64,000 nucleotides of DNA from a virus (IMGVR_UViG_3300046513_000134:36507-100506), one strand, 5' to 3'; shown: positions 320 to 62,755, counted from the stretch's first letter. Program-made: numbers and translations. The notes: generated by a model not told the origin, from the letters alone.

Positions 320-333
320 TGCAATTCGTTGCA
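320..333. repeat. TGCAA-N4-TTGCA site
   Basis: TGCAATTCGTTGCA, at promoter +1. Confidence 0.9.
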
Positions 334-337
334 CGCA

Positions 338-366
338 GCCTTACGGCCCCCGCTTTTTTGGTCAAG
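338..366 (-). promoter_or_regulatory. sigma70-like promoter
   Basis: CTTGAC(366-361)-N17-TAAGGC(343-338); a palindrome copy sits at the predicted +1. Confidence 0.45.
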
Positions 367-387
367 CCCCCGTGGTTCGCTAGCGGA

Positions 388-59249: not shown

Positions 59250-61246
59250 CAGGCTTTCTCCATCTGGCGCTTCTCGGTGTCGGAGACCGACCCCTTATGA
59301 TCCGGTTTCTTGGCCTGCAGCAAGCTCTTCGGAATGAGGCTGAGCGGAATGTTGTGCATAGACCAGATCTCCCGGCGCATGGTCAATCCGTAGATCACCC
59401 CGGCCATGGCGTCGGAGACGTCCTTCGAGCCCTTCGACGGGTGGTCGATCTTGTTCTTGGCGACGTTCTTCTCCAACCGCACCCATTCGCGCTTGGCGAC
59501 GTCATGCTCCGGGGTCAGGACGCGGGCGTCGTAGAACGCCAGCTTCGACACCTCGTAGGGGGCCATGTCGGTATCGACCGACTGGTAGCCACTCTTGTAG
59601 CCGAGCCGCATCAGCGTCTGCAGCGTGTCCTTCGATTGCATGCTGTCGAGGGTGATGTACTTGATCGGCAGGCCCATCTCCTTGAGCTTGTAGATCAGCT
59701 TGCGGACGTTGGCCAGTTCGATCTCGCCGCCCGGTGGGGGCTTGACCTCCAGCGTGAAATCGAAGTGCACCACCGGCAGCATCTCGACGTCCTCGCCGCG
59801 ATGGACCGGGACGAAGTGCGAGACGTAGCCACAGGCGACGCCCGTGCTGTCACCACTGATCGAGGGGTCGATATGTATCCACCGTGGCATATGCGTATTC
59901 AGGAACCGCTTCGGGTAGACCAGCAGCCCGTGCTTGTCGAAGTCGCACCAGTCGTTCGACAGGATCGACGGCACGGTATCGAAGCAGGAGGACAGCGCCT
60001 CGACGTTCATGATGAACGGGTGCATCGCGAGGGTCGAGTGGCCGGCGATGTCGCGGATGTTGTTGAAGATGTCTTCCTCGAACTTCTTCAGGTATTCCTG
60101 CGGCACCTTCATCACCAGCTTCTGGTCGGCCCCGCTGAAGTGCTCGCTCTCGCCGTCCTTGAGGATGCGCGGCTTGCGGTTCTCGTCACCGAGGAACAGG
60201 TCGAACCACAGGCCGGTGAATTTCTCGATCGGCTTCACCTCCCACGAACGCTTGTCGTAGACGAAGATCACCGTCTTGCCGAGGGTGTCGAGTTCGACCT
60301 GCGCCTGCTGCATCTTCACGTCGGTGAATTCGCCGGGGTAGCGTTTCGAGGAGACGAGGCAGAGCAGGCCGGGCAGCTTGCCTTGGTTCATGAAGCGGCT
60401 TTCGCGGCGGCGGGCGATCGAGTTGTAGATGGCCACGGCCTGATCGTAGGTGCCGCCGTCCTCTCCGGCCTTCTTGGACTTCTCGGTGACTTCCATGAAG
60501 TTCACTTCGTCAATCAGCCCGCCGAAGACGTTCTGGCCGATGGCGGCTGTGGCGTCGCCGGAGAGCGGCTTGACGATGATGTTGTTGGGGAACCGCATTT
60601 CCGAGGTCAGGCCCCGGTCATACTGGAAATAGGTGCAGAAGAACGGGCTGGCGTCGAGCATCGATTTGAAGCGGTTGTAATCGACCGCCTTCGACAGTTC
60701 CTTCTTCATCGACTGGAAGATGAACATGATTTCCGAGGAGGCAGCCAGATCGAACGACTTGTGCGGCTTGGCCATGCAGGCCAGTTCGTAGATCGTGTAG
60801 GCGATGGCCACGAGGGCGCAGGTGGTCTTGCCGGTGCCGATGCCTCCGGTGAAGATCGCCTCGTCGTAGTCGCCGGTCAGCAGCTCCTCGATCTCGACCA
60901 TGTTCAGGGGCCAGATTTCCTCGCCCATGTTGAGGTACTTCTTCGAATGCACGAAGGTCCACGGATCGACCGGCAGGAACCGCCATTCGACGCCGGCCTG
61001 TGCCTTCTTCTTCAGCCACGCGGTGGCCTTCAGCAGGTACTTGGCGCGTTCGATCAGATCGGGGATGGTGTTGGCATGTTCCCAGATATGCTGGCCCGAC
61101 ATGCCGCACTTCTGCAAGACGTTAATGCTGGTACGGAAGATGGCCTCAAGGCTGGTGCTCGATGACGAGGTTGGGGTCGAGGCCGTCGAGGAGGTCGAAG
61201 AGCTTTGCGGTTTCTTCGGTCCACTCGAAAGACGTAGCTTGGCCAT
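59249..61246 (-). CDS. terL: terminase large subunit
   Basis: GGIGTGKT, GGLIDEVNF, VSS, WIHIDPS..GD, TLDSMQS, KIDHP...SKDVSDA; start codon uncertain. Confidence 0.9.
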   Translation of the reverse strand: MAKLRLSSGPKKPQSSSTSSTASTPTSSSSTSLEAIFRTSINVLQKCGMSGQHIWEHANTIPDLIERAKYLLKATAWLKKKAQAGVEWRFLPVDPWTFVHSKKYLNMGEEIWPLNMVEIEELLTGDYDEAIFTGGIGTGKTTCALVAIAYTIYELACMAKPHKSFDLAASSEIMFIFQSMKKELSKAVDYNRFKSMLDASPFFCTYFQYDRGLTSEMRFPNNIIVKPLSGDATAAIGQNVFGGLIDEVNFMEVTEKSKKAGEDGGTYDQAVAIYNSIARRRESRFMNQGKLPGLLCLVSSKRYPGEFTDVKMQQAQVELDTLGKTVIFVYDKRSWEVKPIEKFTGLWFDLFLGDENRKPRILKDGESEHFSGADQKLVMKVPQEYLKKFEEDIFNNIRDIAGHSTLAMHPFIMNVEALSSCFDTVPSILSNDWCDFDKHGLLVYPKRFLNTHMPRWIHIDPSISGDSTGVACGYVSHFVPVHRGEDVEMLPVVHFDFTLEVKPPPGGEIELANVRKLIYKLKEMGLPIKYITLDSMQSKDTLQTLMRLGYKSGYQSVDTDMAPYEVSKLAFYDARVLTPEHDVAKREWVRLEKNVAKNKIDHPSKGSKDVSDAMAGVIYGLTMRREIWSMHNIPLSLIPKSLLQAKKPDHKGSVSDTEKRQMEKA

Positions 61247-61730
61247 TATCATCCACCATAGTTCCAGAGACGGTCTTCGGAGCGCGGCGCAGGGCTCCTG
61301 TTTCCAATTGCAGATTGCCGAGAGCGACGAGGTTTTCCTTCAGCAGCTTGATCTCTTCCGAGGCCTGCTTCAGCACCATGTGCTCGTTCTTGTTTTCAGT
61401 CAGCAGGATCTTGTCCACGCGTGCCCGCTGCAGCACACAGAGGTCGTTGAGTTCGTGCATGGCGTTGAGCTTGCGGGAGAGCACGGGCGAGGACATGCCC
61501 TTGGTGGCGTCGAGGACCAGCGCCCGGGTCTTCTCCAGCAGGTCGGAGGACTTGTAGCGTTCCAGCATCTTCTTCAGGCTGTCAGGCTTCTTGTCAGTCA
61601 GGTGCCCGTCGCCCTGTAGCCAACCAACCACCTCTCGGGCAGGGGTGCCGGCGTTCAACCTTGTGTCCACCTCTTCCTGCACCTCGGTGGGCAGGGAGCG
61701 CAATTCGGAAAAGCGTCCGTCTCTGGCCAT
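61146..61730 (-). CDS. putative terminase small subunit (Mu gp27-like N-terminus)
   Basis: SLPTEVQEEVD..L......EV..WL helical motif; immediately upstream of terL. Confidence 0.55.
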   Translation of the reverse strand: MARDGRFSELRSLPTEVQEEVDTRLNAGTPAREVVGWLQGDGHLTDKKPDSLKKMLERYKSSDLLEKTRALVLDATKGMSSPVLSRKLNAMHELNDLCVLQRARVDKILLTENKNEHMVLKQASEEIKLLKENLVALGNLQLETGALRRAPKTVSGTMVDDNGQATSFEWTEETAKLFDLLDGLDPNLVIEHQP

Positions 61731-61891
61731 CAGTGCACCTCACGCAGAGCGTATTCCTTGGCCTCGACCAGATACTCTTCAAGGTCATAGCCGCAGCGTT
61801 GAAATTCGAGGATTGCCTTGGCCCGTTCGAGGTTGTCATCGCAGCCCCATTCGTCCAGCGCGTCTAGGAAATGTGCCAGCTTCTCCTCCAT
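61730..61891 (-). CDS. small acidic hypothetical protein
   Basis: MEEKLAHFLD...; coupled at both ends. Confidence 0.6.
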   Translation of the reverse strand: MEEKLAHFLDALDEWGCDDNLERAKAILEFQRCGYDLEEYLVEAKEYALREVH

Positions 61892-62755
61892 TACTTGACG
61901 CTCTCCAGATCGCCCAGCACCTGCTTGGTGGGAGGCAGTTTCAGCTTCAGCAGCTTCTTGATCGGGAGGGCTGCCGGGATCGTGGCCTTGACCGCTGCCG
62001 CCAGTGTCGGCGTCTCGCCCTGTGCAATTTGTTGCAATATCGAACCGAGCACGTCGTCCATGGTACGGTCCTGCTGGATACACATGTCACCGAGGACGTC
62101 GAGGGCCTTGTAGGTCTTGTTGCCGATCTGTATCCACACCTGCTTCTGCGAGGCGTAGTCGAACACCATGAAGCCGTAGGGGGCGGTGTCGCCGTACTTG
62201 TTGAAGATGTGGTTGAGCAGCTTGGAGAGGCCGTCCACGGTGCGGATTTCCTTGGCCGCTTCCTTGAACTTCTCCTTCATCAGCGGCGTCGGCAGGCTCT
62301 TGGCCGACTGCTCGACCATCTTGTTGTACTGCGCTTCGTCGGAGAAACCGAAGGCGTCCTGCAGGATGTCGTCGCCGTATTTGGCCTGTACCTTCTCCCA
62401 CATGGTGAAGAACGCGGCCGGGTCCATCTGACCCTTGATCATGTTCATTCTGACGATCTGAAAGGTCTCGGCGTCTTCATCGAAATCATCGTGGTCGATG
62501 ACGCAGACGGGGACCTTGTCGAAGCCGAGATACTGGGCGGCGTCGTATCTGTGGTGGCCCCCGACGATCCGGTACTTGCCGGCGTCGATCGGTCGGACGA
62601 GGATGGCGTCGGTCATCCCGGTCTTTTCGAGGTTATCGCAGAGCAGGTCGAACTGCTTCGAGGACATTTTGTTGGGGTTGGCGGTGTTCTTCACCAGCAG
62701 CCCGATATCGCAGTCGAACCGCTGCAAATGCTTTGTTTTTGAGATTGCGTTCAAT
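61891..62755 (-). CDS. ParB/Srx-domain protein
   Basis: NPNKM, G...AILVRP...YRIVGGHHRY.AA..LG...VP; probable TTG start near 62755 after AGGAG; RHH-like C-terminus. Confidence 0.8.
62023..62036. repeat. TGCAA-N4-TTGCA site
   Basis: TGCAATTTGTTGCA, in the parB-like gene. Confidence 0.9.

Follow-up and report, generated by a model that had tools for sequence, protein, structure and literature searches.

Noc on its NBS sites and ParB on parS act through a ParB-fold helix-turn-helix (HTH) domain on scattered palindromes of 14-16 bp, and their specificity switches via a few residues in or near the recognition helix. The KorB protein of plasmid RK2, a dimer with a ParB-fold HTH domain, exerts element-wide control from 12 O_B operators, palindromes of 13-16 bp that are dispersed over the whole mobile genome and lie near -35 elements, farther off, within genes or far from promoters (PMC11790492). 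Among phages, the stoperators of Cluster A (L5 gp71-type) are 13-bp sites without symmetry that a monomer reads and that point in the direction of transcription; they occur in tens of copies phage-wide, mostly in short intergenic gaps, serve temperate immunity, double as promoter operators and co-evolve with the repressor into distinct specificities (PMC9283540, PMC6550527). Cluster O phages carry 17-bp dyads of the form TGTTCGG-N3-CCGAACA, 34 of them in Corndog, between and within genes, with invariant arms, a variable A/T-rich centre and a function and reader that are unknown (PMC4351075). Lytic siphophages of the T1/Stevie kind contain 16-20 dispersed, mostly intergenic 22-bp repeats, asymmetric and transcription-oriented, whose role is likewise unknown (PMC4319613). 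Described here is a comparable lattice in a 64,000-nucleotide (nt) stretch of viral DNA, IMGVR_UViG_3300046513_000134:36507-100506, referred to as the window, in which a 14-bp palindrome, TGCAA-N4-TTGCA (the box), recurs throughout, together with a 398-amino-acid (aa) protein that is its candidate reader.

The window corresponds to positions 36507-100506 of G000, a virus record of 100,506 bp rated 100% complete by CheckV, and the minus strand of the window carries 143 of the 144 genes; gene coordinates and gene contexts are rough calls made in this analysis. Fifteen perfect boxes are found in the window, where 100 dinucleotide-preserving shuffles averaged 0.05 and never exceeded 1, and the whole 100.5-kb genome contains 25, with 0 copies of a backwards control pattern, giving a density of about 1 per 4 kb (about 250 per Mb). 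A first-pass annotation of the window had listed these 15 sites and two one-mismatch copies at 6913 and 32564; all are present, and both one-mismatch copies have the identical half-site variant TGAAA. The gene-sense consensus is g-TGCAA-C-A-W-A-TTGCA-c-n-g, a 14-bp perfect core inside a 16-20 bp near-palindrome, in keeping with the 13-16 bp palindromic sites of ParB, KorB and Noc, and among the 25 boxes the flanks favour G at -1 (15/25), C at +1 (20/25) and G at +3 (18/25). The duplex sequence of the standard box, to be contrasted with the TCCAA duplex of a relative described below, is TGCAACAAATTGCA. Within genes, 11 boxes were observed against a mean of 0.107 and a maximum of 1 in 300 shuffles that kept the proteins and the codon pool. 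Counts matched by such shuffles had been named in the first-pass annotation as grounds for refutation; the excess survives them, and its proposal that selection acts on the DNA is borne out by the same result. The fairly even spacing noted there is also confirmed, the coefficient of variation (CV) of the gaps being 0.58 in the window-phage genome against a simulated 0.94 +/- 0.17 (P = 0.0036), which is evener than random.

The closest cultured relatives of the window phage are the Rhizobium phages RHph_TM16 (about 80% nucleotide identity) and RHph_Y1_11, referred to as TM16 and Y1_11, each about 100 kb in length with nearly every gene on one strand, and contigs with whole or partial window-phage sequence were found in nine rhizosphere metagenome runs. 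Contigs of four runs covering 38000-57999 showed about 27 variable positions per 20 kb and 0 in the 84 box positions, where about 0.1 was expected and the comparison has no power. Portal similarity to the window phage is 54% for Rhodobacter phage RcZahn, 42-44% for the Stenotrophomonas phages DLP5, DLP3 and Summit, 32-38% for Vibrio siphoviruses of the SIO-2/VHS1 type and 34-35% for the Rhizobium phages RHph_I4 and L338C, and the box-carrying clade thus delineated consists of 80-110 kb phages from very different bacteria. RcZahn has been described as virulent, with headful packaging and circularly permuted DNA (PMC8601537), and DLP5 as maintained in phagemid form with heavily modified DNA (PMC5834331); both DLP5 and DLP3 have been reported to be temperate (PMC5834331, PMC7326821).

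Enrichment of the box was found in all the relatives tested, which were phages of Rhizobium, Rhodobacter, Stenotrophomonas and Vibrio and metagenomic sequences, with 9-45 exact copies per near-complete genome: RcZahn 9, DLP5 31, DLP3 31, V-YDF132 25 and RHph_I4 45. Exact copies in contigs from IMG/VR number 21 in G001, 22 in G002, 12 in G003 and 7 in G004, and the box is the top enriched gapped palindrome in TM16 (16 copies) and Y1_11 (15 copies). One-mismatch copies are non-random, with a TGCAG half-site in RcZahn (about 14 further boxes) and G005 and a TGAAA half-site in Y1_11 and G001, and their inclusion brings these four genomes to about 23-32 sites. The 4-bp core is characteristic of the lineage, being CAWA in the Rhizobium-phage group, TCAR in G002, DLP5 and RcZahn, TTAA in V-YDF132, G003 and G004, and C-NN-G in RHph_I4. 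Codon-preserving shuffles gave the same intragenic excess in DLP5 (22 vs 0.34), V-YDF132 (9 vs 0.39) and RHph_I4 (12 vs 0.12), and spacing was likewise even in DLP5 (CV 0.48, P < 0.0002), V-YDF132 (0.57, P = 0.002), G002, TM16, Y1_11 and RHph_I4. Many boxes, intragenic ones included, occupy orthologous positions in the window phage, TM16, Y1_11 and G001. The box at nt 715-748 of the gene for a ParB-like protein is shared by these four with G002 and with DLP5, whose protein is 46% identical, and is in each case written in the rarer codons TTG, CAA, ATT and GCA, mostly ending in A or T, which code for (L/M/V)Q(Q/S)IA. In IMG/VR, a scan with a 16-mer found single copies for the most part, at about the chance level by a rough estimate, and several copies in one relative only.

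Four relatives have zero standard boxes and carry symmetric variants instead (TCCAA, GCAC, TGACA and GGAAA half-sites), contig-wide and in the same 5-4-5 geometry. These are TCCAAT-YR-ATTGGA, present 13-14 times in G009 (complete, 93.7 kb), GCACTTAAGTGC, present about 20 times in G006 (complete, 92.4 kb), TGACATTAATGTCA, present 6 times in 35 kb of G007, and GGAAATTAATTTCC, present 6 times in 34 kb of G008. Since four relatives have swapped the box genome-wide for symmetric variants, the reader of the boxes is encoded by the phage and co-evolves with its sites. The boxes of G007 show the most regular spacing among the genomes analysed (gap CV 0.17, mean gap 4.9 kb).

The first-pass annotation had the boxes spread over early and late genes alike, but they do follow gene structure: 14 of the 25 in the genome, and 7 of the 15 in the window, fall between genes, where 13.5% would be expected (P = 6.5e-7), two further boxes overlap a start codon, and non-coding enrichment is seen in every box-bearing genome (16/25 in V-YDF132, 33/45 in RHph_I4). 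Among 125 intergenic boxes from the clade, 44 lie no more than 10 nt from the preceding stop codon and 39 no more than 30 nt from the next start, and several stand directly behind an intrinsic-terminator-like hairpin and T-run. Read in the sense direction, 34 of 228 boxes are followed after 6-12 nt by a -35-like hexamer, with a peak at 8 nt, compared with 3 on the mirror side. This class accounts for 10 of the 25 V-YDF132 boxes and for 17 of the 45 in RHph_I4, with a layout of terminator, box, 8-12 nt, and then the highly conserved promoter TTGACAAAGGATCGG; other boxes, such as those at 320 and 24190 of the window, are directly behind a -10 element. RHph_I4 also contains, for example at 91747-106450 in the sense direction, about 15 near-identical promoter blocks TTGACAAAGGATCGGTT...GTTAGATTATAA, each with a box 8-12 nt upstream and often also a terminator, forming a repeated regulatory cassette among small genes. 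Intragenic boxes had been described as occurring in different frames, but across the clade the frame is mostly xTG-CAA-xxx-ATT-GCA, coding (L/M/V)QxIA (8/9 in V-YDF132, 15/22 in DLP5 and 7/11 in the window-phage genome); the remaining two frames oblige a cysteine codon. Our reading of this pattern is that each stretch of the genome needs a site, which is intergenic where possible and otherwise coded in the cheapest frame.

The first intergenic box of the window (TGCAATTCGTTGCA, 320..333) is 19 nt 5' of the next start and directly after the promoter-like TTGACC-N16-TAAGGC, and the second (2420..2433) is 4 nt past the upstream stop codon and 110 nt ahead of the next start. The box at 24190..24203 is 12 nt ahead of a start codon and directly after TTGACA-N17-GATACC, that at 38307..38320 is 12 nt past a stop codon and 64 nt ahead of the next start, that at 41955..41968 (kept in TM16) is 2 nt past a stop and 10 nt ahead of the next start, and that at 55810..55823 is 3 nt past a stop codon and 27 nt ahead of the next start. 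Between the portal and protease genes is the box at 46710..46723, which is kept in TM16, Y1_11 and G001, as are the positions of the boxes within the helicase gene 10649-12016 (10986..10999) and within the 180-aa gene 17453-17995 (17878..17891). Further intragenic boxes are located in the 180-aa gene 4129-4671 (4372..4385, frame xTG-CAA-..-ATT-GCA), in the gene 15148-15552 (15502..15515, 37 nt from the gene start), in the 1467-aa tail gene 25976-30379 (28493..28506), in the DNA polymerase gene 48434-50899 (50525..50538, exact in TM16 and with one mismatch in Y1_11 and G001), in a PPDK-like gene at 56364-58475 (56658..56671) and in the ParB-like gene (62023..62036, coding LQQIA). The one-mismatch box at 32564..32577 reads TGAAACACATTGCA in the sense direction.

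Proteins common to the box-bearing phages were defined by profile searches, and the resulting core set comprises structural and packaging proteins (TerL, portal, protease and major capsid protein), replication and recombination proteins (DNA polymerase, AAA ATPase, DnaB, primase, an SSB-like protein, helicase, RecA, resolvase, exonuclease and RuvC), a 154-aa protein of unknown function and the 398-aa protein, with the ParB-like protein present only in part of the phages. The 398-aa protein (5652..6848, minus strand), which has a predicted ParB/KorB-like HTH domain, is encoded in every box-bearing genome and is annotated in relatives as 'putative ribonuclease E/G family protein' or 'hypothetical'. 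Of the ten core genes compared, only this one has a consistently placed upstream box: 8 of 9 phages carry it, 60-88 nt 5' of the start or, in V-YDF132, at 185 nt, compared with 4 of 94 gene instances for the control genes (Fisher P = 1.8e-8). In the window this is the one-mismatch box at 6913..6926 (sense TGAAATATGTTGCA), 64 nt upstream of the gene and a candidate autoregulatory operator. Members of the Rhizobium-phage group keep a weakened version of this box, TGAAAT...TTGCA, which TM16, Y1_11 and G001 have in the corresponding position, and an exact box occupies that position in RcZahn, DLP5, RHph_I4 and V-YDF132. An upstream box was also seen at most of 37 further loci of the family; in G006 and G009 it is of the variant type. 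Clustering at 50% gives 3,428 representatives of the family, which has a conserved C-terminal domain of about 270 aa, and many of its members (about 250-290 aa) are without the N-terminal region. No Pfam family was assigned to the 398-aa protein, a profile search against PDB sequences gave no match and the ESM Atlas only unnamed viral clusters, and a search of 185,579 species genomes with narrow peptide patterns returned 3 contigs of metagenome-assembled genomes only.

An AlphaFold model of the 398-aa protein was built from a 92-sequence alignment and has a predicted local distance difference test (pLDDT) score above 90 across most of residues 150-345. The modelled order is a small N-terminal helical domain (about 45-90), a low-confidence and probably disordered linker, the HTH domain (about 150-290) and C-terminal helices. 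Comparison of the model with 48,161 chains by VIA-align placed six ParB-superfamily DNA-binding domains in the top 30, over model residues of about 160-290, with Z scores of 7.8 for ParB-parS (6s6h, 114/140 residues), 6.9 for Spo0J (1vz0), 5.9 for KorB with its operator (1r71), 5.1 for KorB 8qa8, 4.0-4.1 for SopB, 3.9 for P1 ParB and 3.8 for VirB. The ParB N-terminal nucleoside triphosphatase (NTPase) domain with its GxxRxxA (GERRxRA) motif was not found: Pfam assigned no family, the model has just the small helical domain and the linker before the HTH domain, and no ParB_N-type structure was among the fold matches. From these models a ParB/KorB-type DNA-binding fold is probable, and the protein is predicted to dimerise. 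The homodimer prediction for residues 148-398 scored 0.59 against 0.00 for the best control, a value attained by 20 of the 30 homodimers and 1 of the 23 monomers of solved structure, and at least 50% of contacts agreed between runs, with a partner pLDDT of at least 69 and most of helix 217-233 free of the interface. At the start of the predicted recognition helix, Y217, R218 and Y222 are 92-100% conserved among 26 standard-box proteins, and when covariation with box type was examined over the whole domain, changes were seen in the variant-box phages: R/S/H at 217/218/222 with TCCAA, R at 217 with GGAAA and L at 217 with GCAC. The first-pass annotation had suggested looking for equivalent palindromes that co-vary with HTH residues; equivalent palindromes exist, and three of the four variant-box phages show changes, so that covariation of the recognition helix with box type is partial. 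Of the two candidate readers named in that annotation, the 398-aa protein has the better support, from its upstream box, its predicted fold and homodimer, and the partial covariation.

Several observations weigh against this assignment. The compared phages are related and the counts are not independent, 8 of 9 phages corresponding to about 5 of 6 lineages, and an upstream box could mean that the gene is regulated by the boxes rather than that its product reads them. Foldseek against the PDB gave no match to the model with E <= 0.001, Z scores below 8 for helical folds can arise by chance from a common helical arrangement, and the Rubisco factor Raf1 also matches the model (Z 5.8-8.6). The TGACA phage is unchanged at the conserved positions, and the standard-box phages G002 and DLP5 also differ at 217. 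Small fast-evolving DNA-binding proteins could have escaped the core-gene search. Boxes adjacent to a -35 element make up only 2 of 25 in the window phage against 27 of 70 in V-YDF132 and RHph_I4 together, and because they are rare there, a transcriptional role in the window phage is extrapolated.

The data show that the boxes are enriched and kept across the clade, that selection acts on them as DNA, that they come in co-evolving variants and that their placement follows rules. That the 398-aa protein is the box reader is inferred, and we consider it more probable than not. It is moderately probable, and ranked first among the readings, that the boxes are docking sites of its dimer with transcriptional and/or architectural control. 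The boxes would then be double-stranded docking sites for a symmetric, phage-encoded dimer with a ParB/KorB-type HTH and a dimerisation region and without the ParB N-terminal NTPase domain, occupying about 25 sites some 4 kb apart. Sites would be placed upstream of -35 elements, behind -10 elements, ahead of starts and often right after the previous gene or terminator, the site before the 398-aa gene would provide autoregulation, and where there is no intergenic room the site would be coded in the frame of least cost. From these nucleation points the dimer would exert genome-wide control of transcription units and/or give a regular architecture to the replicating genome. Even spacing, sites within coding sequence and a density that hardly varies between hosts all suggest that a given length of DNA requires a site, which fits a scaffold or spreading, replication or packaging function better than individual operators. 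A more far-reaching version, possible but rather unlikely, is that a ParB-fold protein that lost or never possessed the CTPase clamp domain, on an even lattice with a site per 2-4 kb, orders the replicating genome of these large, at least partly lytic phages into a phage chromatin, coupling transcription-unit boundaries, compaction and perhaps packaging, and that the symmetric box switches (TGCAA, TGCAG, TGAAA, TCCAA, GCAC and TGACA) are lineage self-marks against cross-regulation by co-infecting relatives.

Other readers, and other uses of the boxes, were weighed against docking of the 398-aa dimer. The ParB-like protein (287 aa, 61891..62754, minus strand), the candidate named first in the first-pass annotation, could load on the boxes as on parS, for NTP-dependent clamping, for plasmid-prophage partition or for packaging. 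It matches Pfam ParB_N (E = 1.4e-10) and the PHROG family 'ParB-like partition nuclease', its profile aligns with solved ParB and Noc through the DNA-binding region (6t1f, E = 7.8e-15), the box within its own gene is kept as far as DLP5, and the authors of the work on the phagemid DLP5 highlight two ParB-domain proteins (PMC5834331, PMC7326821). This reading is nevertheless unlikely, as the protein has no match in the complete box-bearing genome G009, its BLAST matches in RHph_I4 are to the N-terminal domain of two shorter proteins although the half-site there is unchanged, and its HTH-equivalent segment (DDILQDAFGFSDEAQY) is acidic and almost invariant between phages with different boxes. Despite the ParB_N domain its nucleotide-binding motif reads GGHHRYDAA (GGHHR) rather than GERRxRA; different members of the ParB-CTPase fold bind cytidine, adenosine or guanosine triphosphate (CTP, ATP or GTP) (PMC12704722). 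The virulence reported for RcZahn (PMC8601537) also stands against partition, and in the 100%-complete window-phage genome no match to ParA-type ATPases (PF13614, PF01656; control genomes 14/14 match), no integrase (PF00589) and no immunity module were found. Classic ParABS partition is therefore unlikely in the window phage. The ParB-like gene, a conserved, familyless gene of about 190 aa (61146-61730, minus strand) and the large terminase gene, two genes downstream of the first, follow each other in this order in the window phage, TM16 and Y1_11, which suggests a packaging (small-terminase-like) role, and the ParB-like protein may serve packaging rather than partition. Less likely again is a part for the 398-aa protein in initiating replication or loading the helicase, with the boxes as multiple origins or as priming or loading sites along a genome of unidirectional genes. 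The 398-aa gene ends the conserved replication and recombination module, which comprises the ATPase, DnaB, primase, SSB-like, helicase, RecA, resolvase, exonuclease and RuvC genes, with no other initiator evident, the boxes are evenly spaced, and the model weakly matches DnaA domain IV (Z 3.7-3.8), but to our knowledge no phage or plasmid system has 25-45 dispersed origins, many boxes are at a fixed distance from promoters or starts, which fits transcription better, and each is a single palindrome with no iteron cluster beside an AT-rich unwinding region. The nick sites of T5 and of Pseudomonas phages offer a comparison for boxes that are targets of a nicking, cutting or modifying activity, whether pac-like or base-hypermodification sites, which is judged improbable, more so than an origin function. 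The N-terminal region of the 398-aa protein is weakly like endonuclease VII (PHROG E = 1.5e-4; Z 4.3), DLP5 DNA is reported to be cut by 4 of 36 restriction enzymes and resistant to 32 (PMC5834331), and sugar-synthesis, thymidylate-synthase-like and dikinase genes are present in the genome; however, double-strand nicking at a palindrome would break the genome, and that N-terminal region is the part absent from the shorter family members.

Very improbable, by comparison with these, is a hairpin of RNA or single-stranded DNA as the working form of the box, whether for processing, stabilisation or termination or as a promoter like the hairpin promoters of phage N4. A stem of 5-6 bp with a 4-nt loop is feasible, many boxes are directly behind stop codons or T-runs, and the core has a lineage-specific orientation bias in the Rhizobium-phage group (CAAA plus CATA 41 vs 9). 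The tolerated variants (TGCAG, TGAAA), however, alter one arm and produce an A.C, C.T or A.G mismatch with no compensatory double changes, and the degenerate core is itself symmetric (YWWR, TTAA), as is needless for a loop, with perfectly palindromic TTAA cores in 25/25 boxes of V-YDF132 and 11/12 of G003; since one-arm variants break pairing and the core is symmetric, double-stranded DNA is the functional unit. No T-run follows the box, V-YDF132, G003 and RHph_I4 show no overall orientation bias, and no other palindrome is enriched in TM16, Y1_11 and the relatives tested, which means that sequence and not structure is conserved. Least likely of all is occupation by a host protein such as IHF or a Mur/Fur-type or LacI-type regulator. 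The box resembles the IHF consensus, WATCAANNNNTTR, the core of which, CAA-N4-TTG, it contains, and 12-21 copies are present in a few Rhizobiales genomes, but the symmetric half-site switch in related phages (TCCAA, GCAC, TGACA, GGAAA) is inexplicable by a conserved host factor, the hosts range over alpha- and gammaproteobacteria, and 81 Rhizobiales genomes have a median of about 4 boxes per genome (about 1 per Mb), many with the CG cores typical of other operators. Among specific sites considered, a sigma-54 promoter was rejected from the sequence and the known consensus (TGC...TGC spacing of 10, GG absent), and an IHF site was rejected on account of the symmetric box variants. In rhizobia the Mur box is a palindrome of 19 bp (PMC1698941), and a Mur/Fur box was set aside for its presumably odd centre, a geometry unlike that of the box.

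Neighbouring genes and a second box-rich locus were also recorded. The 154-aa protein (10166-10630, minus strand) is encoded between the helicase and RecA genes in every box-bearing phage, has a conserved C-terminal motif G.T.NLGNY.SAR..VSLS.PC and no Pfam family, and gave no match in a profile search against PDB sequences; it is a possible DNA-binding partner. The region 51529-58475 of the window, like 79859-87272 of the TM16 record, includes the gene of a PPDK-like dikinase (PPDK_N and PEP-utilisers mobile domain), which in the TM16 annotation stands between two tyrosine-phosphatase-domain genes; a thymidylate-synthase-like gene is near it in the window, and sugar-synthesis and glycosyltransferase genes are also present. 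The dikinase, phosphatase, thymidylate-synthase-like and sugar genes and the restriction resistance of DLP5 (PMC5834331) together suggest that DNA in the clade is hypermodified. Seven boxes, with the sequences TGCAATCAATTGCA, TGCAATCGATTGCA and TGCAATTGATTGCA, are packed into the last 11 kb of a 252-kb contig of the Rhizobiales genome G038 (64-70% guanine plus cytosine; G038:C59:241018-252343), where no core proteins of this phage clade were found apart from one weak tblastn match, and this cluster may be a different mobile element with a similar operator. The 14-mers and cores were absent from a phage context in searchable papers, the papers on DLP3, DLP5 and RcZahn are silent on the repeat, and no published description of this system was found.

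Among the dispersed phage repeats of L5, Cluster O and T1, reader and function are known only in temperate Cluster A. The lattice described here is one palindromic code that extends across alpha- and gammaproteobacterial phages with portals only about 33-55% identical, is kept at near-constant density and coded into proteins despite its cost in codon usage, and comes with natural specificity variants and a concrete candidate reader family. If the 398-aa protein is the reader, its family would be a large new ParB-fold family without a CTPase domain and a tractable system for the co-evolution of DNA-binding specificity with about 30 genomic sites, and it would account for a conspicuous feature of phages considered for therapy or aquaculture (Stenotrophomonas DLP3/DLP5 and the Vibrio SIO-2/VHS1 group).

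Compared with the known systems, the boxes share with Cluster A stoperators the phage-wide copy number and the frequent placement in short gaps, but they are palindromic and their reader is probably a dimer, about half of them lie within genes, and no integrase or immunity module was seen. The first-pass annotation had proposed a phage protein on dispersed sites resembling KorB operators or stoperators; the phage-encoded reader and the DNA-level selection stand, whereas the stoperator analogy fails on symmetry and orientation and the ParB-like protein is disfavoured as reader. Cluster O dyads resemble the boxes in their invariant arms and variable centre, but belong to an unrelated phage group and another host phylum, differ in sequence and have an odd spacer (7-3-7), and neither a reader nor clade-wide switching of specificity has been described for them (PMC4351075). 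The T1/Stevie repeats, which are not palindromic, are more remote (PMC4319613). By analogy, the boxes appear to form a dispersed operator lattice read by a ParB-fold protein, kin to these known types. Noc and ParB require an N-terminal CTPase domain to spread or clamp and serve chromosomal nucleoid occlusion and segregation, and the defining feature of KorB is a CTP-dependent sliding clamp, in which respect the candidate 398-aa reader, without a CTPase domain, cannot work likewise. KorB has 12 sites on conjugative plasmids, whereas 25-45 evenly spaced sites are found here in large phages, of which at least one, RcZahn, is reported virulent, with no ParA/IncC partner found, and the likeness of the 398-aa protein to KorB is structural only (Z 5.1-5.9), no sequence similarity having been detected. 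With short palindromes dispersed over a whole mobile genome, near promoters, away from them and within genes, and with a candidate reader that by its model is probably a similar ParB-fold HTH dimer, the anatomy of the lattice most resembles that of KorB on RK2.

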